A stretch of DNA of 64,000 nt, from NCBI RefSeq assembly GCF_964204645.1, contig NC_134025.1, positions 21,365,101-21,429,100 on the forward strand, in the 5' to 3' direction. The position numbers and the translations under genes are program-made. This stretch comes from Tubulanus polymorphus (lineage: Eukaryota > Animalia > Nemertea). The notes below the pieces were generated by a model. That model was given only the letters and a program-made list of their open reading frames with translations, did not search any database and was not told the origin of the DNA. Below are positions 5,778 through 53,690 of this stretch, in pieces (positions within the stretch are counted from its first letter, which is position 1; each line of letters starts with the position of its first letter).

Positions 5778-7275
5778 TCAGCAGGAGACATGACCTTCCA
5801 ACTGATAACTGACAGCACGAGCTAAATGAAATAAATGTAAATGGCATAAATTTCTTACATTTTTCTTATTGTCTCTTTAATTGGCGTTATTCGATTCACA
5901 TGGCCATCTCACCTGGGCAAATGCTGCACATAAGCGGGCAATATTCCATGAGAACATTAGAATACCTGCAGTATCTTTACCCCAGCTGCCTCCTTGTGGC
6001 GCACAGAACTGCTTATCTGTGGCCTTGGAGCAAATAACTGAAATTAAATGAAGTTGATATTCCAGATTTCGGTTATTTATTTTCGGTGAACACCACCTCT
6101 AGAATTAAGGCTAAAACGAGAGATGCATATAATGCTTGTTTTCTTGTAGTAACCTGCATCATTACTTACTTCCACAATCGGGTTTTCGGAACCATTTTTG
6201 AGGAAAACACGCACATTCGCATGTATTCGGGTCCATGGGTGCTCCATTGAGACAGACTTTTTGTTGACAATCTGGATAAACGGAAAATGGTGAATGGTTT
6301 TTCAGGAGCCGCAAGAGTATCCTATACGATAAGCATTTCAGGGCATTATTTTTTGTTTTGCATGCTCATTCATTTCGTTTTATTTTAAGACAAGAACAAT
6401 CTAACCGAGATAGAACAAATACCCCTCAGTTCAGAAAAACTTACCGCATAAACCATTTTCAACCTTAGTATCGGGGCATTTCGAGCCTTGAGGACCTTCT
6501 TCGCATGGTTTTGTTTAGCCTTTCGAATTACCACTAAAAGTACCTAATTCTATCATATTCACCTCATACGTCGTAATTTTGCATTTACAGATTAAAGTTT
6601 ACGTTGGTCACTTACGCTCGTCCATAGTTGCACGTATATGCATTTCGTGGGCATTGGGCATTTCGCGAAACCACAACCAAGTCTAGTCGACGTCGTCACC
6701 CAAACGACCTAGTTACGTACACATGATTTTAGATATTAGAAATTCTTTCGTTTTCATCGATAAATCGGTTTTGTTATTCTGGATCAAACTGCAATTTGTG
6801 CAGACCTGTGTAAAATGACCGACCACGCCGCCTGTTGAACCAACGCCATACTTGAAACGTGCTTCTTCGCTAAACCAATAGTTAATAACGCTAGTCCAGG
6901 AGAGATATTCTGCCCGAGAGTGATTCGACCTTGAAACATTTCACATCTTTGCACCAAAACATTGTAGTATGTAATTTTTATGATTTATCACGGCCCATCA
7001 CCGGGAAATTGAATATTATTCTACGATTAAAACTAATACAAGCAATTCCTACTACTACGTATTGCTTTGAATCATAGAATTGGGGCGCATCTGACCTGGA
7101 ACATTTCTGTTCTTATTTGCATCGTGCACAACTTTACACGAATCGGCTAGTTTCTGGGCAATCATCGCAACTTCTATGTCCCAGTACTGCGTCAAAATTT
7201 GAAAAAAAATTGTATACACTGATGATTTTTTCTTGTATCCGCAAATAAAACGTACCAATTTCATCATTTTCGCAG
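5778..7275 (-). pseudogene. CAP/CRISP-ShKT paralog A: pseudogene interrupted by the Gypsy element, 5' exons missing
   Basis: Exons homologous to the intact paralogs: YWDIEVAMIAQKLADSC (~7095-7187), GRITLGQN..YGVGSTGGVVGHFTQ (~6806-6930), ShKT exon (~5912-6038), terminal ARAVSYQLEGHVSC* (~5778-5822). A frameshifting deletion follows GQNI and a 1-nt deletion lies in the ShKT exon (GATACTGC vs GATTACTGC). Only ~11 nt of the split exon remain beyond the 3' TSD (18093-18103). Confidence 0.85.
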
Positions 7276-7875
7276 TATTGGAGTAATAAATTACCTATTT
7301 AGACAGTGGGAAATAAGCCGGAGTTCAAGGCAGTAGTTGCGGTTAGCAGGCGACCTACGTGAATACTTACGTCACACATAAGAGAGAAGCATAGAAGATA
7401 GGTGAGAGTGACGTGGGTGTCTACGTGGGAAAGCTTGTTATAGCAGCAGCCTTGAGCTCTGGAAAGTTGAGTTATAAATTTAGCGCTCGTGACGTATAAC
7501 ACACGTAGAAATGATTTACATGGCCAGTAGGACTGTAGTAATAGAATAAGACGTCTCTGGCGATGAGGCCAAGCGGTGTGGAAATATACGTCACGAGCGA
7601 AGGAAGAATAAGTATAAAAAGGGAGGGTTTTAATGCAGTGGGGTCGAAAGCTTGGTCGGTAGAGCTGGGTCGGTTGAGCTAGTGGTTAGAACTAGAGGGG
7701 ACGTGCTAGGAAGATTGTAAGAAGAGAGTATAAGAATAAAGATCTGGATCGATAGAAGAAGCTAGTTGTAGTTAATTTATGAGAAGAACCCCAAGGAACT
7801 ACGCTGGTGAAACGCAAACAACGCAGGTGGTCAACACACGTCACCCGGACACTGGGAAAGAGGACCCCCACAACA
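7276..7875 (+). repeat. 5' LTR (TATTG...CAACA)
   Basis: Matches 17489-18088 with 4 substitutions seen by eye. TATAAAA at ~7614, AATAAA at ~7735. Confidence 0.97.
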
Positions 7876-7876
7876 C

Positions 7877-7894
7877 TGGTGGAGAATAGCGGCA
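7877..7894 (+). promoter_or_regulatory. Primer binding site, tRNA-Ala type
   Basis: TGGTGGAGAAT starts 1 nt after the LTR and is complementary to the 3' end (...ATTCTCCACCA) of metazoan tRNA-Ala(AGC). Confidence 0.8.
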
Positions 7895-8017: not shown

Positions 8018-8986
8018 ATGGCAAACGCGGGACAGCAACCGGCCGTGGGACCAGCCAATCCGGCTGTAGGACAAGACGACGACAATGATAGCGACGATGA
8101 AATAATCATTGTCCCGAAAGGCGTAAGCGGGCTGAAACCAGAACATTTTGACGGAACAAACGATCCGGAACCATGGTTAGACGCATTTTTACAATACGTA
8201 AAACTCATGGCATGGAGTGACCGTCAGATACTGAGGAGCTTTCCCTTGTTTTTGAGGGGAGAAGCTCGCTCTTGGTATTTAGGTGTCGATAAAGATAAAA
8301 AAACGCGTGTGGAATGATTTATTACAAGCGTTTAATCAGCGATATAATAACCCGGATCGAAAAATGCTAAAAACTCACCAGCTGAAACACATGCGCATGG
8401 TTTCAGGCCAAACAGTAGACAATTTCGCAGACGATGTTAAACGGAGAGCGAATGAATTGGAATTACCCGCGCATGTGACGTTGAGTACGTTTATTGACGG
8501 TCTCTCCGCGGACATTCGCAAAATCGTTTGGACGCAAATGCCAGAGGATCTGGACAAAGCCATCAAAATGGCTAGTAACGTAGTCCAGATGTTGAAACTA
8601 GATGGCCCTGGTGTTCATCAAGTCGAGACAGCCAACGCGGAGTGTGACGAACTGAAAACAAGAATAAATCAGCTAGAAATTAAACAACGAAAGGAGGAGA
8701 CGATGGCACAGGAAAGTCGGGCTCTTTTACGGGAATTCAACGACCGTTTGAAGCGATTACGTACGCGCGAAATGGAGCTACAAACAATAGATTTCGTTAC
8801 CCTACGTTTAGAGGTCGATGTTACAGGTGTAACATAATTGGACATATGGCTAGAAATTGCAGGGGGCCAGCGAAATCTACCTTTGCAACGGAAAATAGAA
8901 ACATCATTTGTTATCAATGTGGTTTACCTGGACATATTAGCAGATATTGCCGTCGGAATACGAATCGACAACAGCGGACTAATTAG
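8018..8986 (+). pseudogene. gag: Gag (capsid plus two CCHC zinc knuckles), two frameshifts
   Basis: LKPEHFDG..WL..F..LRGEARSWY capsid-like motifs. Frameshifts in an A7 run (~8300) and at ~8765. Ends CYRCNIIGHMARNC..CYQCGLPGHISRYC..TAG at 8984-8986. Confidence 0.88.
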
Positions 8987-9013
8987 GGCTGTAGCAAGGA
9001 TGGCTTAGGGTAG

Positions 9014-12000
9014 CTGTCCAGAGCTATACAAACAGAGAATGCCCAAGTATTGTATGAGGTAGGATCGGGGATAACGGGGGATAGTGGGCGCTCACAGACA
9101 AAATTGAAATCTCACAAACAAAACTTGACAAAGCAGAAAATTTTGAAAGAAAAACCAAAAGTATTATGCTCTGAGCACCCGCTATCCTTAAATTGTGTTA
9201 TTTTTGATGAACGGATGGATGTTTTGATTGATACAGGAGCAACTCGAAGTGTCATATCATATGAATACTTTTTAAAATTAAGATCCACGGTATTAGTAAC
9301 GCCGTTAGAATATGACGGTTATAAATATGCTACGGTAGCTGATGGGGGTACATTAGAAATATTCGGTATTGTTAAATTAAATCTTAAAATGGAATCAAGG
9401 GTTGTTACGCAAGAATTTCTGATATTAAGGAAATTGGCTCACCCATGTATTCTAGGCATGGATTTCATTAACAGTCAGGGTGTGGTTATTGACACTCCGA
9501 GAAAGCTCCTACATCTGTCATCCGGTCACTCAATACCTCTTCACGAGGGGGCAAAGGTACAATTACAAATTTGTATAGTAGCTAACGATACGGTCACAAT
9601 TCCGCCTGGTACACAGGTGCAGATAAAAGCAAAAATGAAGGGGACGGGAAGAAAGGACGGTGTAGGTTTTGTTCAACAGTCAGCTAGATTATGGGATAAA
9701 TATGGTATTATGGGTGCGGCTAGTATATCTAATATTAAAAGTGGGGTATTACCTGTGCAAGTTTGTAATCCATCAAATTATTCAAAACGGTTAAAAAAGG
9801 GTGCCATTTTAGGAGATGTTACTCTCATCGATTTAGATGCTCCTATCGCAGACGGGTCATATATGACAATTGATAGTGAAGGTATTTCCACGCCTCAACC
9901 TGAAAATCAAAACGATATATTAGATAGTGTGGAAACGGGAGACATATCGGTACAGCAAAAAGCTGATTTAAAATCATTATTGGAAGAATACAGAGATAGG
10001 TTTGCAGAAGGGATATTGGAGTTGGGAACCGCAAAGGGGGTTGAATGCAATATTGAGACTGAAAATGAGGTGCCTATTCGGTCACGACCATATCGGGTTC
10101 CATTAGCGTTGAGGGATATTTTAGATAAGCAGATTGATGAACTTAAAAAGCAAGGCGTTATTGAAGATTCAAATTCAAATTATAGTTCTCCCGCACTTTT
10201 GGTACCAAAACCAGATGGGTCATATCGATTGTGTATTGATTTTAGGCGATTAAATAAGGTATTAAAATTGCAAACGTTACATCCAATACCTCATATCTTT
10301 GACACCTTAACTATGTGCGGCACCGCTAGGCCAAAAATATTTTCTTCTCTAGATTTAAGAAGTGGTTATTTTCAGATCCCGATTTCACAAGAGTCTCGTC
10401 ACAAAACGGCGTTCGTAACGCCTACTGGTCATTACCAATTTACTAGATTACCCATGGGCATAGCATCGGCCCCTAGTATTTTTCAATCCATTATGGCTCG
10501 CCTCTTACATTCATTAGGACACTCTGTTTTGGTTTATTTAGATGACCTTTTAGTATTTTCTACGTGTTGGGAGGATCACTTACAACATTTACGCCAACTT
10601 TTTGAAAGATTACGGGTGGCGGGGTTGACACTTAAACCCAGCAAATGTTTTATTGCTCGACCAAACTGTAAGTTTTTGGGTTTCTATTTAGACGGGGATG
10701 GCATTAGAACTAATCCCGAGAAAGTAAATGTGATTCGAAACTGCCCTGTGCCTACAAATCAAACTCAAGTTCGGTCTTTCCTAGGGGCTGTTAATTTCTA
10801 TAGAAAATTCATTAAGAACTTTTCGGGGCGGGCACGACCATTGACACTATTGACGAGAAAGGGTATACCATTTCTATGGTCTGACGATTGTCAGAAAGCG
10901 TTTGATGACTTGAAACAGGCACTTATAACAGCACCCGTGTTAGCATATCCTTCTCTGGAACGCAAGTTCAAGGTTCACTGCGACGCATCAAATTTTGCGA
11001 TGGGATATTGTCTTGTACAGGAAGGAGACGACGGTCAAGAACACGTAATTGCATACGGTGGACGAGCGCTAACAAAACAAGAACAAGCATATTCCGCTAG
11101 TGAGCGGGAGTGTCTGGCGCTCATTTCAGCCATTAAGTATTATAAAGTATACCTGTATGGAAATCCTTTTACGGTGGTCACAGATCATAAAGCACTGTTG
11201 TGGTTAAAAAAGATGGAGGTCGATGGTCTCGCCTCAGGTCGGCTACAACGGTGGTGCATCTTCCTACAAGGATACCAATATGACGTTGAGTATCGGGCAG
11301 GAGTACAACATGCAGATGCGGATTTCTTGTCTAGATTAAGGTATCCAGAAATAGTGGCTGTTGACACAGGTAACGACGATATCTTGGTGAATTTGCCTAT
11401 GGAACAACGTAAAGATAATGAGTTACGACCTATCATTGATTACCTATTAGACGGATCATTACCAAAAAATGATCGTTTGGCACGACGAATAATCTTGTCG
11501 CACGAAAGGTTTATTCTGGACAACAAGGGTAGTCTTCAATACTTGCAACATTTAAATCGCCGCCAATCTGCTCACTTCTCTCCTTGCTATGTGATACCAA
11601 AACAACTTCGCTTACAAATCCTGCAAGAAACACATGAGGTTTTTGGAGGACACAGTGGCATCAAGTCAACGTATATGCGTCTGAAAAATAGGTATTATTG
11701 GAATGGTATGTTTAACGATGTAAAGGATTTCTGCTTACGATGTAATGTCTGTCAACGGAAAGGGTTGTCTGCAAAAGAGGCTACTAAGGTTCCAATGCAA
11801 ACGGTACGGGTGGAGCCAATTTTCCATAAATTTGCTATGGATATGGTGGGTCCCTTTCCGGTGTCTGACAAGGGGCATAAATATGTGTTGACATGTATTG
11901 AAACTTTTTCATCATATATGGAGGCATTTCCGCTTAAGACGGCATCGGCAGAAGGTTGGTGGATGGTATCATTTTGAGATATGGGATGTTTTCTACTATA

Positions 12001-13041
12001 CTTACCGACAATGGGTCAAACTTTATCTCAAAAGTCTTTCAACGAACGGCCATCCTCTTGGGGGGTAGAACAAAAACTACGTCCTCATATCATCCACAGG
12101 CGAATGGTGCTTTAGAAGTACAACATAGACAATTAAACAAATCAATAGCTAAGTTATTAGATGGACAAAGCCCGGGAAAGTGGGACTTATATCTGCAATC
12201 TGCGGTATTCGCAATGAATTCCTCAAATAATATCAATTCGACGTCATTCACGCCTTTTGAAATTGTTTTTGGGCGGATGCCTAAATTGCCCATGGAACTA
12301 GCCATATCAGCTCCAAAAAATGAATATGGGTCTCATGTGGCCTATTTTCAACACTTAATTAAGAAGATGGATATAGTACATGACATAGTTCGTAAGAATC
12401 GGGAACTGAGCAAAATAAAAATGAAGCAGCAGTACGATAAAAATGCTAAAGATATTCAGTTTGAAGTGGGGAGTAAGGTTTTTCTTTATTACCCACATTT
12501 GCCTACTGGGGCATCAAAGAAATTACATTCATTTTGGCTGGGCCCATATGAAATTATTGAAAAAATAGGAGAAGTTAATTACAGATTGAGAACGGATGAT
12601 AATCGAAAGGTTAAAACATTAGTTCCTGTAAATAGGTTGCGTCCGGTTTATGAATCTAAAAAACCGCCTACTTACGACTTACCGCAGACTATTGAAAAAT
12701 TAGATGACTTACCAGGGAACCTCGCCATGGATGAAATCGTTTTGCCCCATAAGAGTCGCCATGTCAAAATCGGCATGACGCCCGCAATTGAACCTCCTAC
12801 TTTGACGCAGAGGGACATGACGTTATCGAAGGGTCGCGAAAATATTGACGGGAAAGACGAGTCGATATACACTGTGTCTCGAATACTCAAACATAGAAGA
12901 CGGGGAGGCAGGTTGTATTATTATGTCGCCTGGGAGGGTTATACGGATAAGACTTGGGAACCGGAGGAGAATTTCTTGGATAGGTCGATCTTGACGGCAT
13001 ATCATCAGAAAGCCAAGAAAAGACGGAAACGACGTGCATAG
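9014..13041 (+). pseudogene. pol: Pol: protease, dUTPase-like spacer, RT, RNase H, integrase, chromodomain; one frameshift at ~11955
   Basis: LIDTGA, LPMG..YLDD, HCDAS/ERECLA/TDH, H..GHSG..C..C, MDMVGP/TDNG/ANGALE, WLGPY, and YTVSRILKHR..YYVAWEGY..TWEPEENF (chromodomain). The two ORFs (9050-11977, 11956-13041) are joined by a small deletion. Confidence 0.95.
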
Positions 13042-13181: not shown

Positions 13182-15123
13182 ATGGTTCGGAGTATAGTTC
13201 ATATCATTATGATTTGGTCGTGGATAGGACCAATGGCTGCATGGGATGCAGAGCTACGGATGGGGGCTGGAGTAGTGTTCCAGCCAGTTGACGAGATAAA
13301 TGTAGCAGCAACAAAATGGGAACATAGTGTTATGATTCCTTTAGTAGATGTTTCCCGGTTTTCGATGACAATTCCTAATATGACGTGTGGAATGCCCAAT
13401 GCCGAATGCCGACAAATAGAGAAAATGTTTCGCCTAATGCGTTTGCGTAAAATCCGAGCTGATCAAAAATTTAACAGTTCCAGGCGTATGATTGAATCAT
13501 TATTACCTGTTGAAATTCCGAGTACAAGAAGAGAAGGCCGTATGAAACGAACACCACTATCATTCATCGGAGATGTCGCCAGTTTGATTTTTGGGGTCGC
13601 CACTACTGAGCAGTTACAAATAGTGGAAAGACATATGAATAAGTTTGATGCATTACAAAAATTAGATCATAAAGCTATTGTCCAGTTACAAGAACGGTTA
13701 ACTAGCTTTGCCAACGTAACAGATTCTAGATTTAAGTTAGTCAAGTCTCTAGTACGACAAAACAGAGATTATATGTCAAAACTTTCGGAATTCGTTGTAA
13801 ATAATACTATGAATCAGGCTCGTTTACAGGCAAGGGTACATGCACTATCATACGTAGTGCGGTATTCCATTAATTATGGGGATGTTATTGAGGCTATCAG
13901 CAGCCACATGGCCGCGTGGTTGCGCTCCACTAACGTTTTACTATCAAATAGACTACCTGTAGAGTTAATTCCGGTAACAAGTCTCCAGGAAATCTTATCA
14001 AAAATTCGCGTTACATTGAAGAATTTTTACCCCATGTTTGAGCTGGCACATCAAACCCCGAGTTATTATTATTCGCACGCGCGAACGTTTATGGGCGGCC
14101 ATTCCCGCCAAAAATCAGCGTTTCGTCTATTTTTCTGTACTTCGACAAAATGTCATAGTACACCGCCAAAATGTGTTAGCGTAACGTCGAATTGTGTAAT
14201 GCGGCTAAATAACACAGGAGGGCGACACTGTACGGACAGTATTTTGCGGTATTTTTCTCGCATTGCGATCATCTCAAGGTCGTTTTATTGAAATAATTTT
14301 GCGATTTTGCTATAAGCCGTGACAAGCGTATACAAGTAGGTCCGATTATTTACGGTCAGAAATTAGGGGGACACATAGTTCTTTGAAAATCGGTGGTTAT
14401 ATTCTGATTTCGTTAGTAATTGTGGCAATAATAGTATCGGCGGTTTTATGCAAACGATATGAGGCATGGGCGGCGGCAGGGACCGCTTTAACAATGGTTA
14501 AAAGTGTAGAGGCAGGGAATTTGGACATAATTCACGAACAGTTGGATATTGACTTGTCTGCGATTAGGAAGGCATCGGAAACCTTGTTAGATTGGGAGGC
14601 TATAATTGAATGGGCAGTTGTAGGTATGGTCGTATACTCGACACTGCGGTATTTTTTTACTGACGGGTGGCGGTTTATGAGTAGACGTCGGTGGCAGATA
14701 TCATTAGCGTCATGTTCCTCTCCTAGGCTGTCTGCAGAGGTCTTAGCCGAAGTTTAAAATCATGATGGGGCGTCGGCTGTTTTACATTTAGGGTTCGTAT
14801 CTCCTCATTTATGGGAGGAAGTCAAGGCCGTCCAGCCGTTGGCAGAGATTAAGATCAAAACATACGGACCGTTGGTTGCAATCAATGTTACATATGATAA
14901 AAATACCCCTTGCACGAACTGCTTCATTAAAACAATTTACGCCAGTCGGCTTTTCAATAAGCCGCTAAGGAGATTGTGTAGTGGGGAAATTTTTACTAAA
15001 TTTTGGATGGTGCATCAGCGGGATGCAGTCTTAATGAGTGACGACCTCCCATAGAGATATGGCGGCCAGCCTGTCTATAGCGACTCTTCGCCACAAATAG
15101 CAGTACATGTTATCCCTGCCTAG
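13182..15123 (+). pseudogene. env: Env-like class I fusion glycoprotein (F-type), internally disrupted, with a post-TM extension
   Basis: Signal peptide MVRSIVHIIMIWSWIGPMAA; furin site RMKR followed by a fusion-peptide-like TPLSFIGDVASLIFGVAT; heptad region; N-glycosylation sequons. The TM segment resumes in another frame at ~14323-14757, and that frame continues past single stops to ~15123. Confidence 0.82.
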
Positions 15124-15746
15124 ACTACGGATGAATTTGCTTTCTGAGGCAATGGGTGGGGACTAGCGGCTGACATCTCGGCGATTCGGATGTATCTGAT
15201 CAGTATATCCATTTTTGCATAAATTTCGGCTCATCTTTATAAAATGCACTTAGAAAATTATTATGGAATTATTCATTAATTGTTGAAGCTGTCTGTTGCC
15301 AACATGTGCTGGGCACACGATAATCAACTAAATGATGTACTTGGCATCAGTATTAATTTACGTCGTTGATTGGAGTCGGGACAGGTTGGACAAACCATCT
15401 TAAACGGTTAAAGATCGAGGCGGTCAGTGTATGGAAAGGGAGAGGAACATAATAAAAAAGGGAAACTTTCGGTGTATACTGTTTTAATAATGCTTACTTC
15501 AAAAAAAAGGGGAAGAGAAGTTGGTGGTTTTGTATCTAACTAAATTTGTATTATCATACTAAATGTGGTATAAAAAGAAACGAACTCCAGTGAGTGTAAA
15601 TAGATCTGGTCATTCTTCTCGTTCTGAAATATAGGATTTGTATTTGCATAAGTTTTTTTTTTAATTCCCATATGGTTCATATTGTAATTTCTCGGACTGA
15701 AATACGAATTTGTTATATTTGCTTGTATATTTTATAAAATTCTTAC

Positions 15747-17053
15747 CGGGTTCGCTGCCACTGGAATTTGTAGGTGAAGGAGGTGGGAAGTAGCTAGCCA
15801 GCGACGGCAGGGAGCTGGAGGAGCTGCTTGCAGAAGGGCTAGCAGGGGTATCAGGGATGTGAAGGATCGGATATCGGGAATGGGGACCAGGTAAGAGGGG
15901 GGAATCAGGTACAGGAGGGGAATCGGGAACTCCAAGTGATAGGAGGGGGTGCTGAGAAAGGTCGAGAAAAGGAGTTGGGTTGGGAGAAGAGGTACTGGGG
16001 GATGGGGACATGCGGTTATAGGGTGGAGGTTGTGGCCCCAGACCGGAGGGCGAGGGGTCCACGCTCTGGTCTGTGGGCGCGTTAGTACGACGGGAATAGG
16101 GATGCATGCGGAGGGTGCCGCCGCTTGGTTGCCCCCTTCCCGTGCCCCTTTGCCGCGCCGTATGTTTCCCTCGTGTTGGGGATGGGGTGGATGGAACTGG
16201 GAGCCCTGCGTAAATAGACAATATATATAGAGGTAACATGTGGAATTGTGTTCGTGGCGTTGCCATAGTATAATTATTAGCATTAGAACATATAACTAAT
16301 GGTATACGCAATAAATAAATAAATACGTATGAACTATGGTTGTAAAGAGGGATATATATAATGTATACCTGAAAACGCGGCGCGTAAGTCGTCGGTGGCA
16401 GCCCGAATTATGTTTGATAATTGTTGTCGGTTGCCTGCGTTGCAAAAGTATATTAGAAAAAGCAGTTATAAATTGTTTTTTTTTTGGTACATAAAATGAA
16501 TTAAGAAGTCTTACCGGGCTGTGCTAGAATAAAGCCATACAGCATGTGTAGGACCGGTGAGGCTGATATAAAAAACAAAATATGACAGGATGAGATATAT
16601 ATGTTGTTAATTTTGAGGTTTCTAATTTTATATACTTCATGCTTTGAAGCACGGTATTCGTACGTTGCCGTACAGTACCTTGGTAGTGCTGATTAAAATT
16701 AAAAAAAAAAAAAAAAGGGATTGTATATATAAAAGTATTGTTGCATAATATAATACAACGGTAATGAAATGGACTGAAGTGCAATTAACGTTTTTACAAT
16801 TAGTAATTATAGTTACATGACTAACATTGTTAAAATTCAAGGTTTTTCTGGTATTATATTGTTCACATTTTTAGAAATAGCGCATGGGGTAATAGATCTT
16901 ATCAGGGGCGATGTGACCGTTTAAAATAACAAAGTGCAAGAGTGGCGCATAATGTATTATCGCATGTAATGATAAAACTGTACAAAATGGTTGGTGTGTT
17001 AGTTTATAAGTATTCAAAATAAGTTGCTTACCGAAATACTCTATCGGGTCCAT
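15747..17053 (-). CDS. Putative spliced antisense accessory gene of the Gypsy element (Pro/Ser-rich, basic); last exon unresolved
   Basis: Candidate exons 17053-17032, 16562-16515 (48 nt), 16434-16369 (66 nt) and 16205-15747 (459 nt). All have GT/AG boundaries, all are phase 1, and they join into one open frame. Confidence 0.55.
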
Positions 17054-17474
17054 TGTGAATGATAATCCGGATGGTAATGAGGGTTTAGTCTTTATGGCGG
17101 ATGGAAGTAGAATGTTTCAGAGATGGGGATTTTACTCAGTATCAAGGGTGACTTTTTGGCCAGGTGTACTGTTATTGTTGCTGGTCAGGAAAAAATAATG
17201 GGTTTTTTTTCTCTTTCTACCATCCAGATGTTGAAAATTTATGTGCGTCAGTTGCAAGATTGTTGTATCATTTATCATAAAGCACCATTTTTATTGCCTT
17301 ACGGTGAAGTTCAAGAGGTAAAAGTTGTTAAAAAAGAAAAACAAAAAAGAAAAAGTTGTTTATGGAAGTAAGGGGTACTGATTTTGCACTATTGCTAGCT
17401 ACGGCTCTTTAAAAAATCTTTGGAAGTGTAAACGGGCTTCAGTATTTTTTTGGCGATTGGGGGTCCAATCGTCT

Positions 17475-17488
17475 GGAAAGGGGGATGG
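17475..17488 (+). promoter_or_regulatory. Polypurine tract
   Basis: GGAAAGGGGGATGG abuts the 3' LTR and is preceded by the hairpin GATTGG-GGGT-CCAATC. Confidence 0.85.
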
Positions 17489-18088
17489 TATTGGAGTAAT
17501 AAATTACCTATTTAGACAGTGGGAAATAAGCCGGAGTTCAAGGCAGTAGTTGCGGTTAGCAGGCGACCTACGTGAATACTTACGTCACACATAAGAGAGA
17601 AGCATAGAAGATAGGGGAGAGTGACGTGGGTGTCTACGTGGGAAATCTTGTTATAGCAGCAGCCTTGAGCTCTGGAAAGTTGAGTTATAAATTTAGCGCT
17701 CGTGACGTATAACACACGTAGAAATGATTTACATGGCCAGTAGGACTGTAGTAATAGAATAAGACGTCTCTGGCGATGAGGCCAAGCGGTGTGGAAATAT
17801 ACGTCACGAGCGAAGGAAGAATAAGTATAAAAAGGGAGGGTTTTAATGCAGTGGGGTCGAAAGCTTGGTCGGTAGAGCTGGGTCGGTTGAGCTAGTGGTT
17901 AGAACTAGAGGGGACGTGCTAGGAAGATTGTAAGAAGAGAGTATAAGAATAAAGATCTGGATCGATAGAAGAAGCTAGTTGTAGTTAATTTATGAGAAGA
18001 ACCCCGAGAAACTACGCTGGTGAAACGCAAACAACGCAGGTGGTCAACACACGTCACCCGGACACTGGGAAAGAGGACCCCCACAACA
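17489..18088 (+). repeat. 3' LTR
   Basis: 600-bp copy of 7276-7875, followed by the TSD GCAG. Confidence 0.97.
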
Positions 18089-20976
18089 GCAGCAGCTGGT
18101 TGGTGTAAATTAATGCCGACAATTATAGTTTCCTTCGATACCAGAACGATTAAGAAATTGAAAATATGGACGGTTGGAATTACTCGCCGCAAGTCAACAA
18201 CAGTAAATGAAAATACAGAGATGATATTGTATTCTTCATCACTTCATCATACGTCAAGGTCACCAATTAGAATAGTTACCGAAAAGTGGTTTCATCGCAC
18301 TTAGAATGTATATAGCCAGTCAGCACAGGAAATAATCGAAGCAGAAGTACTTAAAACTGAGATTTATATCTACGAAGACTGTCACCAACTGTAGGATGTA
18401 CAATTAAAACGGTCTTTTTATCAGGCGTTCGACAATTTTATAATTGTGACAAGCAATGGCAGATACAGCTTACCTCCTGTAGAAGCAATAGTTATACGGT
18501 TTGATATGTATGGGAAAAGATATTGTGTGTGCAGTGTGCACGATAGCGCACACTAGATGTGTGCTGCGGTGCGCACACTGAATGCAAATGGCTCGGGTTA
18601 CAAGAAGGGAGTATGTTGATAAGCATGAGCAATATGTAAGGACTTTTAAGGGATGATTAGTGTAGTAAAGTCTAAGGTTTTTGGTTCAGGGGGAGAACAA
18701 AAGAGAGTACAAAAGAGTACATGAGAGAGATAGTACTAAAAGAGAGTTGGGGAGATAAAGCTGAATAGATGGCGTAAGCAGTAGAGAGAAATGAAGAAAA
18801 GCTTGATCATACCAGATGGAAGTGTTAGTACATGTAGTTGATATCTACATAAGGAAGAGGCAGGTCAGCGAAAGGAACCAGTTACATAGAAGATCCAACG
18901 GCACAGCATTAGTGAGAAGAACGAGGTGACATAACAGTGGTGGAGGTGGTAGTCCCATTACAAGTGGTGGAAAGCGTAGTACCATTACACTCCCATGCCT
19001 TCCGGAAGGCAAAATAAATTTCCAAAATGCCCTTTTAAAATCAAAGTAGTAGAAATTTCGCTTTGATTTTTTGTGTTTCAAGCTATTGGAGTTTTTAGCA
19101 TTTTCAAGCTATTGGAAACCTCTCAAATAGCATCTCGGACCTCAATTTTTCAAGTTTTCTTTTGGGAGCACCCTCAAACCGACAGATATTGGCTTGGCGC
19201 CTACGCCGCTCGCATGGCACGGATCGTCACGTTGTGTTACATCTCTGCCTTTTATTAATAAACAGCGCCCTTTTGAATTTGGAAAGTAATATAAAAAATC
19301 ACCTGGATCCGCCCCCTGACAAGAACGTCGGACCTTATTCACTAACGTCATGCAGGTATGCTTGGATGATTTGAGCTGCGAGACCATTTGCGATGAAAAT
19401 CCTTTTGCGTTGCGTGTTATTCACATAAGTCCTCGCAAAAACTGATTCACAACTTTTCACACAACGGGAACCAGTCCAACCATTTTGCAATATAAAACAA
19501 ATCATTGCAAATGTATCTTTATATCAAAGCTGGATTCCTGTGGTGAACTCATTAAAAACGATTTGCATTTGATTTGATTTATCACCGGAGAAACAATTAT
19601 TATATTTTCATTAACGTGACATTTCGCATACTTATCATCAAATTATTTAGATAGATATAGATTCCATGATGTGGGATGACCGTACGTTTTCTAGTGAATA
19701 AGGTCACAGAATAACTAAAACAGTGATTAAGTTTTAATGGGAATCAATGTGACAAATATTCAGTGGGCAGAACAATATTGATCATGTGATGGAAGTTCCA
19801 CAATTGCTAACAGTAACAAGAACCACGAAGAGCCAAAATAGCCATCCAGTCAAAATATACCGTGATGAAAATGCGACACCATCGGTGTCACCGAAACTTC
19901 ATATTAATGGCCCGCCAGCTGAGGAAATAATTAGAACTACCGTCTGTCTGAAACTCCCAACAGCAAATTAGCTCACGCGATGATAAGCGAATTCAATTAC
20001 ACCATGCAATGATTATTATTCTTTACCCGCAATTGTGAGCAGCATTGATATGCAAACCTTTGGAAATTATAAAGAGAAATCAAAGTTTGATTATTGTTGG
20101 GGTTTCGAACTTGACATAACTGGTACATTTGCGTCAATGCATAATATCACAAAAAAAACCCTACAAATTAGTTTCGATTTGAACAGACACTTTAGCCGTG
20201 ATCACACGGAGACGATTTGGCATCACGGGCCAGAAACGCTCGTTTGGTGACTTGTCGACTGAACGTCTGGTTCAAATGGTGATGAAATTGATACGTAGTC
20301 ATAAGGATGGCGATGGTGCAGATGAGAATGAAAGTCGTGATGATGGTGGTGATTGTGATGATGGAGATGATGGCGGAGGTGTAGATCCACCCCATCCAAT
20401 CATCAGTCGACCAGCCATCCTGTCATCCAGTCGACCAGTATACCACGTTACCTGTGTACAGTCGGTGGGTCTTAATGAAGGACCGAATCACTACCAGCGT
20501 ATGGAATATGTTCATACACCTTTACTCTCACCCCGTATTCTACACTTGGGCCCACATTTCGACGAAGGTCCGAACTGATGCTATTTTGATCTTGTCATTT
20601 TACCTGTATAGAACTGACAGACATTTTCCAACCTGTTCAGATTTTTTACTATAACATATATATTCCACAATTTACATACAACGAATACTTGTACAACGAG
20701 CATTGATGTCGAATTTAGTTACATTTAATAAACTTTCAAAATCTGAGTATATTGTGTTAGATTTCTGATATTCATTTTCTATTCGTTCCATTCGCTGATA
20801 ACGGTACAACCTGAATGGTAGCTGTAATATAGACCTTAATAATGTCTGTATGGTTAAGTCAAATTAATTTCCCAATGTACGACGAAAAGACATGGTTAGT
20901 TCCAGTATCCTCACAGACAGACAGCACACACTCAGACAGTCAGTGCACTTACAGGCAGCCTTGATCCGCATGGATC

Positions 20977-21924
20977 ATGAATTCAACTCGGATGCAAATC
21001 GGCAGAACTTACAACAGTTACATCGTTCTCATGTCTGCGGTGAACAGGTCTGGTATCTACCGTACTGTGACATTGGTCATTCTGCCTGTTTGGTTCTTCT
21101 TAGGAGCCTTCGGAAATTCAGCTACATTCCTGATAATGATAAACCGCAGATTCCGTAATTTATCTTACGCTAACTATCTTATCGCTTTGTCAGTTAGCGA
21201 TTCTATATGCTGTATCAATTTTACTCTGATGCCTGTTTTACAGTTTTTCCTCTCGCATCTGAACAGTCGCTCAATATTTGTGATAGATTCAGTCATCGGT
21301 TGTCAGATATATGAATTTGTGATGGCGCTTGCAAACTGCAATAGTTCGTGGTTAATAGTAGCTATCTCTCTAGAACGCGCGGCAGTTGTGCTCTTCCCAT
21401 TCACATCTCGCTTGATATGTACACCGAGATTCGCTAGATCTAATATATTGATAATTACTGCTGTGAATGCACTTTTTATATTTCTCACACCTGCTTTGTC
21501 GATACATTTTACTGACCAGTATTTTGGATGTTCCTATGAATTATTGGATCAAATAACATATTTTTTGGCATTTGTCATCCACGTTTTCGTGCTGCCTCTA
21601 ATATATATTATAACATCAAATTCTGTTATAATAATTCAGCTATTCAGAAGTTCAAAAATGGTTTCGTCTGATCAGAAAACTACAAAATCAAAACGTACAA
21701 CAATAATGCTTGTCACAGTTTCACTCGCATTTGCATTATTCTTACTTCCATCCGCTGTAGCTTCAGTTTTACCAATCTCACCGTTGCTGGGAGAATTTCT
21801 ATATGACATATTTATTCAATTTCAAGTATGTAACTATGTGGTAAACTTTTACATATATCTATTACTGGGAAAAGAAATTCGTGAATATTTTTGTACGAAA
21901 ATACGGTGTAGAGGTATTAAGTAA
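20977..21924 (+). CDS. Single-exon class A (rhodopsin-like) orphan GPCR, 315 aa
   Basis: Seven hydrophobic segments; TM1 GN, TM2 LIALSVSD, TM3 Cys and SLER, TM6 FALFLLP, TM7 NFYIY, helix 8 KEIREYF. Confidence 0.92.
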   Translation: MNSTRMQIGRTYNSYIVLMSAVNRSGIYRTVTLVILPVWFFLGAFGNSATFLIMINRRFRNLSYANYLIALSVSDSICCINFTLMPVLQFFLSHLNSRSIFVIDSVIGCQIYEFVMALANCNSSWLIVAISLERAAVVLFPFTSRLICTPRFARSNILIITAVNALFIFLTPALSIHFTDQYFGCSYELLDQITYFLAFVIHVFVLPLIYIITSNSVIIIQLFRSSKMVSSDQKTTKSKRTTIMLVTVSLAFALFLLPSAVASVLPISPLLGEFLYDIFIQFQVCNYVVNFYIYLLLGKEIREYFCTKIRCRGIK

Positions 21925-22341: not shown

Positions 22342-22703
22342 TTTAACAACACTAAATGTCACTGATAATTGTTATACATATTTCATCTATATTTCGTATT
22401 TCTTTATTGTTTTATGTCTCCATCTTATTACTCATTGTCCTCTGAGACTGTTTGTCTGTGTCAGAATGTGTTAATTGTTGTTTGTCTCACTGTCATGTCA
22501 CTACTCGTCACCTTTGTTTTTGTATCATTTTCCATGTCTCAACCTGTCTGAATCTGTGTGATATAAATAGCTATGTGTAAAAATAAAGTCAGTTCCAGTT
22601 TTGGTATTCCAAACTGATAGTTCGCTCGTTACTCTTTCGCTCTGTTCCGGATTTCCGACGTCGACCATTCTTCGAGAATAGGACAGAAAATAGCGTTGCT
22701 AAA
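22342..22703 (+). repeat. 5' LTR of mini element
   Basis: TTTAACAAC...GTTGCTAAA (8/9 inverted repeat). TATAAATA at ~22562, AATAAA at ~22582. Confidence 0.93.
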
Positions 22704-22704
22704 T

Positions 22705-22715
22705 TGGTGTTAGAA
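22705..22715 (+). promoter_or_regulatory. PBS, probably tRNA-Leu
   Basis: TGGTGTTAGAA versus TGGTGTCAGAA expected for tRNA-Leu(CAA); the difference is a G:U wobble. Confidence 0.65.
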
Positions 22716-22794
22716 CCGGCGGGCAAGTTTTATATTCAACTGCCCGTATAAGATCCTGGTACCGCGCTCTCAACAGCTAGTTTTCCCCATCACG

Positions 22795-23679
22795 ATGAAT
22801 ATTCTACCACCGGCAGTCGTAGTAACCCTTCAAGAGGCTGGATACCACCAGGCACCTCAGAATTGGACTATTAATGCCGAGGAAGGATGTATCAAAGTTT
22901 CACTGACATGGACAGTCCAGTCATCGAAGCCATCGAAAGCGGTGAAATCGAAGTCTACTCTGAATCGGGACCGTAGACGTATGCAGGAATTCCTGAACCG
23001 AAGGATGCTGAAAACAGAAGTTCCGAAGTCAACGAAATCAGATAACGCTACCATGGACACAGCGGTCATGACTGTCAACGCGACTCATGTTATAAGATCT
23101 CAGACAGTTGAGGACGTCATAACTACCGCTGAAATAAAGAAATTGGAAGAAACTTCGCAGAAACTTTCAGGTGAACTTGTCGATTTGAAGGTCAATTTAG
23201 AATCAAAAGAAAGAACTATTATTGGACAACAAAAAGAAATCTTTGGACTACAATCAAAATTGGATAAATTAAAAATGCGAAATTATCCTTGTCATTGCGC
23301 TAAAGATCCGAAAAACTCTCAAGCATGCGAAGATACATTAACTGATATCGGTGATCTTTACGAAGCAGACCAACCGAAAATCATGGCTGCAAAACGATCA
23401 GGAATATTATATGAGGTCCGGGTGCAAGATCCAATCTCGAGAAAATACGCTGATTTCTTTGTGCACTGGGGACAATCATTATCATCAGTTTTCTATGACA
23501 TTTTGAACAGATACGATTTGGATATAAAATCATTCACCTATCGCGAACCAAATTCCAAAAATAAATGCTTGGACATTGATCGAAATACTTCATTGTGCTC
23601 GTTACATGAATCAGGAATCATCAAACACTTATGGGATAAAAAGGGTAGAAATATAGTTTGGTTAGGAATGAGATTTTGA
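22795..23679 (+). CDS. 294-aa protein of unknown function carried by the mini LTR element
   Basis: Uninterrupted ATG-TGA ORF filling ~80% of the internal region. Basic KSKSTLNRDRRR segment, central heptad coiled coil, CHC, possible beta-grasp C-terminus. No CCHC, DTG or YxDD motif. Confidence 0.85.
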   Translation: MNILPPAVVVTLQEAGYHQAPQNWTINAEEGCIKVSLTWTVQSSKPSKAVKSKSTLNRDRRRMQEFLNRRMLKTEVPKSTKSDNATMDTAVMTVNATHVIRSQTVEDVITTAEIKKLEETSQKLSGELVDLKVNLESKERTIIGQQKEIFGLQSKLDKLKMRNYPCHCAKDPKNSQACEDTLTDIGDLYEADQPKIMAAKRSGILYEVRVQDPISRKYADFFVHWGQSLSSVFYDILNRYDLDIKSFTYREPNSKNKCLDIDRNTSLCSLHESGIIKHLWDKKGRNIVWLGMRF

Positions 23680-23805: not shown

Positions 23806-24167
23806 TTTAACAACACTAAATGTCACTGATAATTGTTATACATATTTCATCTATATTTCGTATTTCTTTATTGTTTTATGTCTCCATCTTATTACTCATT
23901 GTCCTCTGAGACTGTTTGTCTGTGTCAGAATGTGTTAATTGTTGTTTGTCTCACTGTCATGTCACTACTCGTCACCTTTGTTTTTGTATCATTTTCCATG
24001 TCTCAACCTGTCTGAATCTGTGTGATATAAATAGCTATGTGTAAAAATAAAGTCAGTTCCAGTTTTGGTATTCCAAACTGATAGTTCGCTCGTTACTCTT
24101 TCTCTCTGTTCCGGATTTCCGACGTCGACCATTCTTCGAGAATAGGACAGAAAATAGCGTTGCTAAA
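23806..24167 (+). repeat. 3' LTR of mini element
   Basis: Copy of 22342-22703 with one G/T difference. Confidence 0.93.
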
Positions 24168-52330: not shown

Positions 52331-53281
52331 TTATTTGACTGAATGTCTACAGCGTATTTTCATACAGAAATATTCACGAATTTCTCGTCCCAGTAGAAGA
52401 TATATGTAAAAATTTACAACATAGTTACTCATTTGAAACGGTGCAAAAATGTAATAAAGAAATTCTCTCTGTTCCGGTGAAATTGGTAAAAATGTGATTA
52501 CAGTGGATGGAAGCGTAAATATTGCAAATGCGAGTGAAACTGTTACAAGCATTATTGTTGTACGTTTTGATTTTGCAGTTTTCTGATCAGACGAAACCAT
52601 TTTTGAACCTCCGAATAACTGAATTATTATTACCACATTTGATGTTAGAATCAAAGATAAAGGCAACACATAAATCTGGACAACAAATCCTACAAAATAT
52701 ATTATTTGGTCAAACAATTTATAGAAACATCCAAAAAACTGGTCAGTAAAATGTATCGACATAGCAGGTGTGAGACAAAGAAAAAGTACATTCACTGCAG
52801 TAATTATGATTATAGTTAATCTAGCGAATTTCGGTGTACATATCAAACGAGATGTGAACGGGAAGAGAACAACTGCTGCACGTTCTAGAGATATCGCTAC
52901 TATCAACCACGAACTATTGCAGACTGCAACCGCAAATATAAATTCATAGATTTGACAACTGATCAGTGAATTTATCATGAAGATAGGACCATCTTTGAAT
53001 TGCATGAGAACAAACTGTAAAACAGGCATCAGTGTTAAACAGGTACAGTACATAGCGTCACCGAATGACAGAGCGATCAGATAGTTAGCATAAGATAACC
53101 TGCGGAATTTGCGACTTATCATTATCAGGAAAGTAGCTGAATTTCCAAACGCTCCAAACAGAAACAGGACGGGCAGAATGACCAGTGATGCAGTACGGTA
53201 GATTCCAGACCTACTCACCACAGACATGAGAGCGATGTAACTGATGTACGTTCGACCAATTTGTGTCTGAGAAGAATTCAT
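52331..53281 (-). CDS. Single-exon class A orphan GPCR, 316 aa, paralog of 20977-21924
   Basis: Same 7TM motifs, with long identical blocks (CNSSWLIVAISLERAAVVLFPFTSRLICTP; KSKRTTIMLVTVSLAF). Confidence 0.92.
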   Translation of the reverse strand: MNSSQTQIGRTYISYIALMSVVSRSGIYRTASLVILPVLFLFGAFGNSATFLIMISRKFRRLSYANYLIALSFGDAMYCTCLTLMPVLQFVLMQFKDGPIFMINSLISCQIYEFIFAVAVCNSSWLIVAISLERAAVVLFPFTSRLICTPKFARLTIIIITAVNVLFLCLTPAMSIHFTDQFFGCFYKLFDQIIYFVGFVVQIYVLPLSLILTSNVVIIIQLFGGSKMVSSDQKTAKSKRTTIMLVTVSLAFAIFTLPSTVITFLPISPEQREFLYYIFAPFQMSNYVVNFYIYLLLGREIREYFCMKIRCRHSVK

Positions 53282-53690
53282 GATTCATGAGGATGAGAGT
53301 GTACTGACTGTCCGAAAGTACTAACTGTGTCAGAGTGTACCGAGTATGATATTATGTCCTTGTTCTGCAAGATTCATCATCAACAACGAATAGAAAACCA
53401 ATTCTCAGAAATCAAACACAATTTACTAAGATTTTGTTAAAGTTTATTATTGTGTAAATGTATATGAAACAAAATCAAATATCAATATTCGTTTTACATG
53501 AAGTCATTATAAATGATGAAGCCTCAGGAGTTCTCAATTTTCAATAACAAAGAGAAATTTTCCATTTTGTATTAAAAAGCGAAAAAGTTACGTAGGTTCG
53601 AACAGGGAAAATCCTGGATGCAAGCAAGATAATTACCAGACCACTGAAGTTCAGTGAGGTGACTGGTGACCATTCAAGAGCAGTGCGACC

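Follow-up and report, generated by a model that had tools for sequence, protein, structure and literature searches.

Does the long 3' region of an env-bearing gypsy element in the nemertean Tubulanus polymorphus carry a spliced gene on its antisense strand? The element lies in a window of 64,000 nucleotides of contig NC_134025.1 (positions 21,365,101 to 21,429,100 of the forward strand), which is the whole stretch of DNA analysed here and to which all coordinates refer. Between the end of env (approximately 15060) and the 3' LTR, 2.4 kb contain not a single plus-strand ORF of at least 120 codons. For this interval, an initial annotation made from the letters alone had proposed a chain of minus-strand exons and compared it to the HBZ gene of HTLV-1. 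The element is composed of the following parts:

7276..7875, plus strand: 5' LTR of 600 nt, delimited by alignment of the LTR pair
8018..9010, plus strand: gag region identified with Pfam, ends approximate, frameshifted in the window copy
9014..13041, plus strand: pol, with protease, RT, RNase H and an integrase carrying a C-terminal chromodomain, in two frames in the window copy
13182..15060, plus strand: F-type env, end approximate, broken by a repeat, a frame change and a stop
17476..17488, plus strand: polypurine tract, recognised in the sequence
17489..18088, plus strand: 3' LTR, delimited by the LTR pair, candidate antisense promoter

Pfam searches identified gag, protease, RT, RNase H, integrase and chromodomain (the latter with E 7e-10), and the order of the pol domains is that of the Ty3/gypsy type. 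A stretch resembling a primer-binding site follows the 5' LTR at 7877. The insertion is young, since the LTRs differ at just 4 of 601 aligned bases and are flanked by a 4-nt target-site duplication (7272-7275 and 18089-18092). The window copy is a defective member of its family, as gag, pol and env are all broken; in env, a high-copy repeat of 217 nt (14092-14308) replaces part of the gene, and the frame change and a later stop are found besides. The element as a whole has a G-rich plus strand.

The env ORF at 13182 revealed 354 relatives at E<=0.001 in an unindexed search, many of them about 800-850 residues long, while a query with env against longer proteins gave no match. The best relative (47% identity) also matches 14329-15018 and itself shows a weak similarity to Baculo_F (E 2e-4, below the curated cut-off). 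Atlas assigned env to Baculo_F clusters at 0.96 (49% of members, a low recognition value), and named relatives originate from acorn worm and scallop. In a FastTree phylogeny of 52 RT-RNase H sequences, composed of the 45 best proteins, six loci and the window element, the element falls into a clade (support 0.996) that includes elements of Pinctada and Mytilus. Judged by these similarities, it fits the 'ancient errantiviruses', a group with F-type env in which a chromodomain clade comes from Cnidaria, Mollusca and Annelida (PMC13524379, available text). Shared with these are the order gag-pol-env, the F-type env, the chromodomain integrase, and an RT close to mollusc elements.

The element is inserted in a coding exon of the first of five tandem CAP-domain genes, which are located about 10 kb apart on the minus strand (5400-60200) and encode Cys-rich tails and GGST repeats. 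Inside this array lie two inverted, intronless ORFs of rhodopsin-type GPCRs, 82% alike (20965-21924, plus strand; 52331-53284, minus strand), and an ORF of 321 codons without Pfam hit (22714-23679, plus strand); its downstream part occurs in two copies, 99% alike (22537-22703 and 24001-24167).

On the minus strand of the 3' region, the exon chain under study, in the version that we call form A, reads as follows:

17032..17053, minus strand: predicted first coding exon of form A, 22 nt, with ATG and a phase-1 donor (score 8.0)
16515..16562, minus strand: exon of 48 nt, predicted hydrophobic or amphipathic helix
16369..16434, minus strand: exon of 66 nt, predicted amphipathic helix
15747..16205, minus strand: exon 4, 459 nt, with basic stretch, R-x-x-PY motif and Pro/Ser-rich low-complexity tail
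15609..15623, minus strand: candidate last coding exon, four codons and stop, after a 123-nt intron; other possible starts are 15696 and 15496

Coordinates, splice dinucleotides and lengths of the four exons (22, 48, 66 and 459 nt) are all as the initial annotation had given them, phase 1 holds at all four donors, and the joined frame is open over 198 codons. The exons are indeed GC-richer islands (GC 0.45-0.61, as opposed to 0.25-0.29 in the introns). The introns of 469, 80 and 163 nt are AT-rich and similar to those of the host, which range from 76 to 852 nt. Acceptors for the last exon score 5.3 at 15696, 5.2 at 15623 and 7.9 at 15496, and polyA-like hexamers are located at 15552 and 15488.

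The model for scoring splice sites was trained on the tandem CAP genes of the host, with 46 donors and 44 acceptors that are not independent. Among the 87 GT dinucleotides on the minus strand of 15071-17488, the donors of the chain rank 1, 2, 3 and 6; among the 94 AG dinucleotides, its acceptors rank 1, 3 and 4, rank 2 being held by an acceptor at 16688. The best acceptors are located at the GC borders of the exons. A search for the best ATG-led open chain with three introns and at least 150 codons recovered the antisense chain unaided with a score of 62.2, compared to 38.1 for the best such chain on the plus strand of the same region. For exon 2, this search took the acceptor 16688 over 16562, both being in frame, and the originally proposed version scores 0.8 lower; the resulting long exon 16688-16515 is open and in frame, yet AT-rich and intron-like. 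Block shuffles gave any chain in six of 300 cases, with a maximum of 46.3, and reached 62.2 in none of the 300. Across the window, 21 of 104 tiles contain a chain: eight host CAP tiles, two from the antisense region, and 11 with scores of at most 46.6. The scores of the CAP tiles (57.5-68.0) are circular, because the CAP genes trained the splice model. The antisense exon structure is thus more than chance.

Exon 4 has two open frames in the window copy and lacks codon periodicity (p 0.15 vs 0.0001-0.0002 for env and RT), and 181 of 5,000 shuffles of it stay open, as a G-rich plus strand favours open Pro/Ser frames on the minus strand. Within exon 4, the plus strand, i.e., the genomic RNA, contains a G-quadruplex-like run at 15977-16007. 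No further copy of the antisense region was found within the window.

Relatives of the region were found in contigs of four runs from one study with two samples (S1 and S2); the contigs behave as DNA. These two other samples contain near-identical copies as well as copies of the region that are about 88-91% alike. In run X1, pol/env pieces have a depth of about 181, antisense pieces of 154-202 and a flank piece of 36, where depth is not a copy count. The X1 pieces stem from copies other than that of the window, since their env runs through without the repeat. As contigs from other copies carry the region, it is a family feature, and judged by a depth similar to that of pol/env, most family copies have the predicted antisense coding unit in the interval from pol to the 3' LTR. 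This speaks against a captured fragment unique to one copy, which the initial annotation had named as a possible refutation.

The diverged pieces have a depth of 38-61, cover the exons, and span only approximately 15822 to the LTR. Comparison of sister copies for retained GT/AG, proposed at the outset, gave a positive result, as the splice sites inspected are kept in the diverged copies. The exon-4 acceptor is altered at two letters and still reads YAG, one piece keeps the 48-nt exon with its flanks and then diverges inside the introns, and at the place of the first donor a diverged contig shows a donor in the same phase (loose end at 17005). In exon 4, two diverged pieces differ from the window at 36 of 302 and 22 of 166 letters (12-13%) with 0 gaps. 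Exon 4 diverges as fast as the neighbouring sequence; over that part, its sequence is free while its frame seems kept. Ten indel entries are among the differences listed. Seven are intronic, mostly in homopolymer runs, two in exon 3 cancel within one codon (3 nt), and a 1-nt deletion at 15898 in exon 4 occurs in one contig.

One X1 contig joins the LTR (17911/7698) directly to 15822 in exon 4 over a 4-nt microhomology; the copy is diverged and truncated, without PBS, gag, pol and env, and keeps most of the antisense gene. The diverged set may consist of one or few older truncated copies, in which case part of its divergence would be neutral decay. Record 11 of run X2 (496 nt) matches just 16513-16562, i.e., the 48-nt exon and its GT, with three differences, unrelated flanks and no AG acceptor. 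In run X5, presumably of RNA, no contig matched the region, a result that speaks neither for nor against the gene.

For constraint on the codons of the minus strand, another check proposed in the initial annotation, changes between the copies were tallied by frame. Seven of 11 single-site changes are silent in the proposed frame, against three and one of 11 in the other frames (expectation 0.32; p 0.03), a tally that rests on 40 of the 103 differences and one site from a loose end. In the two small exons, six of seven changes are silent, including three of three in the 48-nt exon among the differences listed. Differences private to the window copy are silent in none of five cases in exons (Fisher p 0.03), and that all five alter a residue is as expected for a dead copy. 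When the three altered bases of one exon-3 codon are counted as non-silent, the tally becomes seven of 14 (p 0.13; Fisher p 0.07). The second open frame contains a stop in all contigs covering 16416. Taken as a statement on the sequences compared, the evidence for selection on the frame is modest.

Where the gene would start is the next question, for which two further features are relevant:

17584..17592, minus strand: possible alternative start exon within the 3' LTR, coding for Met-Cys-Asp, predicted phase-0 donor at 17583
16679..16688, minus strand: micro-exon of 10 nt, acceptor 9.0, weak donor 3.9, frame fits only when the LTR exon precedes it

Across 15071-18088, no minus-strand donor scores higher than the one at 17583 (score 10.7), nine bases past the ATG. 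In the predicted form B, the ATG at 17592 together with the micro-exon enters the 48-nt exon in the frame already proposed, and the product has 201 residues instead of the 202 of form A. Form B would explain the strong acceptor at 16688, which is otherwise frame-shifting. The micro-exon, listed as a possibility in the initial annotation, has a strong acceptor; its donor is weak and its frame fits only via the LTR exon. The ATG context of form A is better than that of form B. In three X3 contigs the LTR ATG is kept, with a silent change in codon 2, and it is missing from one diverged X1 contig. The 3' LTR contains ten ACGT cores as compared to 2.0 expected, while the element body has 1.7 per 600 nt, and the LTR includes five TGACG/CGTCA half sites; cores and half sites resemble, as we presume, sites of bZIP factors. 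Since ACGT cores are frequent in the LTR and a CRE-like core coincides with part of the donor, the latter may be incidental; diverged LTR contigs keep the donor, yet lose the overlapping CRE-like half site (loose ends at 7391). It is plausible that the antisense transcript begins in the 3' LTR, and, as far as the splice model tells, the LTR may also contain the first coding exon, for which there is a concrete, HBZ-like candidate.

Two other arrangements were rejected. Form A with the micro-exon yields a shifted product of 89 residues, whose frame is stopped in other copies and shows few silent changes. A 5' UTR intron at 17302-17181, enclosing all four ATGs of 17472-17054, has a weak acceptor (1.3), and counts are near expectation.

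The predicted product starts with about 45 residues in two amphipathic segments (hydrophobic moment up to 2.0), continues into exon 4 with a basic stretch of Arg and Gly, and ends in a tail with an overall Pro+Ser content of 37%. Its net charge is zero (14 basic and 14 acidic residues), and no membrane span was found (best 19-residue hydropathy 1.16). In the PY-NLS consensus, R/K/H-x2-5-PY comes after a motif that is basic or hydrophobic, and the whole lies within a disordered region. The R-x-x-PY motif at residues 78-82, previously read as resembling such a signal, occurs in 29% of shuffles of the same residues and is thus at chance level. Homology searches were negative: 0 of 1576 candidates were homologues of exon 4, and Atlas had no match for it; the exon 4 and exon 3 peptides gave no Pfam hit at E<=1, and hence neither bZIP nor TRP28 (PF04195); Rfam gave no match.

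Scans with RT identified 238 distant gypsy loci with an RT identity of 46% or less, and neither the joined product nor the antisense region matched any of them. Among the first 160 loci, 14 were picked for a long post-integrase region; their best two-intron antisense chains score at most 32.9 compared to 45.8 for our element, where the splice model of the window host may not fit those loci. Reading of L190 and L200 by eye revealed no such antisense gene, and scans with single proteins gave no hit in either viral or genome contigs. In the env-bearing relatives whose 3' ends could be read (L002, L142 and L200), env is followed by no more than about 1.2 kb; as this leaves no room for the antisense gene, it looks lineage-specific. 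Many of the loci L161-L238 are contigs of GTDB symbiont MAGs with animal-type gypsy elements, with F-type env in L177, L190 and L200, and are probably host contamination. In L083, minus-strand exons at 8200-9417 flank a chromodomain gypsy element and are not an element gene; recognised by eye, they are presumably those of a host tryptophanyl-tRNA synthetase.

Antisense ORFs in the interval from pol to the 3' LTR are known from plant Ty3/gypsy elements, namely maize Grande gene23, rice RIRE2 and Retand/TRP28 (PMC7264820, PMC11963269, as far as their available text goes). The product of gene23 is nuclear and the gene has its own upstream promoter (PMC7264820). In common with these plant ORFs, termed aORF-3R and described as of unknown function in the text available, our gene is antisense, located in the 3' internal region and present in sister copies. 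In contrast, our element is found in an animal, has an env, and shows several predicted introns; the word 'intron' is absent from the accessible part of the Retand paper, and exon 4 has no TRP28 or SMC hit. In Ty3/gypsy elements from Botrytis and Sclerotinia, brtn of Boty is described as an extra antisense gene of the 3' region (Zhao et al. 2011, cited after PMC7264820 and PMC8365987). Boty-like elements are fungal and, by the accounts accessible, lack env, and the likeness was drawn by description alone.

The transcript of HTLV-1 HBZ begins in the 3' LTR and undergoes splicing, and translation mostly uses the LTR exon (PMC1459196, PMC10186651), while APH-2/3/4 proteins lack a bZIP (PMC10186651), again by the available text. 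The predicted form B of our element would share with HBZ/APH a spliced antisense gene with a first exon in the LTR. They differ in that HBZ/APH belong to Retroviridae, not Metaviridae; our product shows no bZIP or sequence likeness, and the gene occupies a non-overlapping 2.4-kb space of its own with four to five predicted introns. The parallel to HBZ drawn in the initial annotation would concern the predicted spliced antisense layout; the plant and fungal antisense ORFs are closer precedents, and the gene is not an HBZ homologue. By analogy, the gene would work like an antisense accessory ORF, and it is not a member of the HBZ or TRP28 family.

CERV of the C. elegans element Cer1 is an essential, spliced, nuclear and phospho-regulated regulator that acts as RNA-export factor (PMC10309623, available portion). 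It shares with the predicted gene that it is a spliced accessory protein of an animal gypsy-type element, and differs in being an RNA-export factor made from spliced Cer1 mRNA. Rotifer elements carry extra enzymatic ORFs (PMC5408684) and Oikopleura Tor elements have internal env promoters (PMC4402516), according to the parts accessible; the accessible parts of PMC12477816 and PMC12859917 contributed nothing further for comparison. Our literature search, with most subscription papers and Repbase reports outside its scope, revealed no animal Ty3/gypsy element with a spliced antisense coding gene; the descriptions of such a layout that it yielded concern only elements of plants and fungi and retroviruses of the HTLV type.

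We consider it probable from the sequence comparisons that the family keeps a real, spliced antisense coding gene; the exon chain has host-like splice sites and is present in sister copies. If the gene is real, a product acting as a nuclear self-regulator of the element is somewhat favoured by analogy, the products of gene23, HBZ and CERV being nuclear. A minus-strand mRNA from the 3' LTR region would be spliced to encode a protein of about 200 residues, helical in its first part and disordered in the rest, with forms A and B converging on one frame. LTRs can drive antisense transcription, and reverse transcription leaves in place those introns that lie antisense to the genomic RNA. The introns would persist because, being antisense to the genomic RNA, they remain unspliced before reverse transcription. 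Exons 16562-16369 may encode a short helical module for binding to a protein of the host or of the element, and the basic Pro/Ser-rich tail may be a disordered arm that can be phosphorylated and contains a nuclear signal. Transcription or silencing of the ACGT-rich LTR in the nucleus would be the most probable target. The full reading, in which a family-carried antisense exon chain is transcribed from the LTR region into a nuclear self-regulator of about 200 residues, is tentative, with chances slightly short of even. Rather unlikely, as we see it, is its boldest extension, namely that an errantivirus lineage independently evolved a complex-retrovirus layout: an antisense regulator of five or six exons with a first exon in the LTR, a frame-setting micro-exon, and alternative starts and micro-exon use as a regulator switch.

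Which other explanations could account for the chain? A host-gene piece captured backwards with its introns, whose frame is inherited and unused, would match in splice sites and intron sizes, and it would fit the lack of the gene in the distant relatives examined and the 50-nt match of one exon amid unrelated sequence in run X2. Nuclear proteins of hosts often have Pro/Ser-rich tails, too. However, the space from env to the polypurine tract accommodates a start codon, a stop and polyA-like signals, the copies show a bias towards silent changes, a first exon may exist in the LTR, and the region has no second copy within the window. We regard such a passenger as unlikely, and capture as an origin is compatible with present use. 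The antisense RNA itself might be the working product, limiting the element via double-stranded or small RNA, with the peptide incidental or newly born from the G-rich 3' region. The missing codon periodicity of exon 4, its open frame being partly expected from the base composition, and the non-coding antisense RNAs of micropia (PMC7264820, available text) speak for it. With three internal exons that are all multiples of 3 and in one phase, silent changes biased to one frame, GC steps at the exon borders and no Rfam match, it appears decidedly unlikely. That the chain is chance altogether, i.e., GC islands kept for genomic-RNA structure with splice-like borders by accident, could be argued from the G-quadruplex-like run and from strong donor motifs that occur on the plus strand too; in view of 0 of 300 composition-preserving shuffles reaching the score, the best acceptors at GC borders and the sites kept in diverged copies, this is extremely improbable.

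Two alternatives accept a real gene and assign it to another role. The motifs PPxY, YPxL and PT/SAP are late-domain motifs in particle budding. Exon 4 holds PPxY and YPxL, both together being found in 1.5% of 20,000 shuffles, and all frames of the gag region lack PPxY, YPxL and PT/SAP; since the element has an env, a cytoplasmic product serving particle budding or trafficking with motifs that Gag lacks is conceivable. The pair was, however, noticed post hoc among six motifs tested, each motif alone is common (0.20 and 0.21 of shuffles), and no membrane anchor was found, so that we consider this adaptor very improbable. Scarcely more probable is a product that counters small-RNA silencing in the cytoplasm, or one that exports the genomic RNA as CERV or Rev do. 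It draws on the basic Arg/Gly stretch opening exon 4 and on the precedent of CERV in an animal gypsy element; against it stand the lack of homology or domain and the net charge of zero. The spliced Cer1 mRNA that encodes CERV is, moreover, reportedly sense-strand.

For the biology of these elements, the preferred reading, a nuclear self-regulator encoded by a spliced antisense gene, would have consequences beyond the nemertean family. Env-bearing gypsy elements of animals are annotated as gag-pol-env only: in the survey of 1512 elements, whose pipeline annotates only gag, pol and env, the main text contains 0 occurrences of 'antisense' or 'accessory' (PMC13524379). ORF-based pipelines would miss an antisense gene with several introns because it has no long open frame. 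If the reading is true, regulatory 'accessory' genes may hide in the long 3' regions of many animal elements, and the layout of HBZ would have arisen outside the retroviruses, too.
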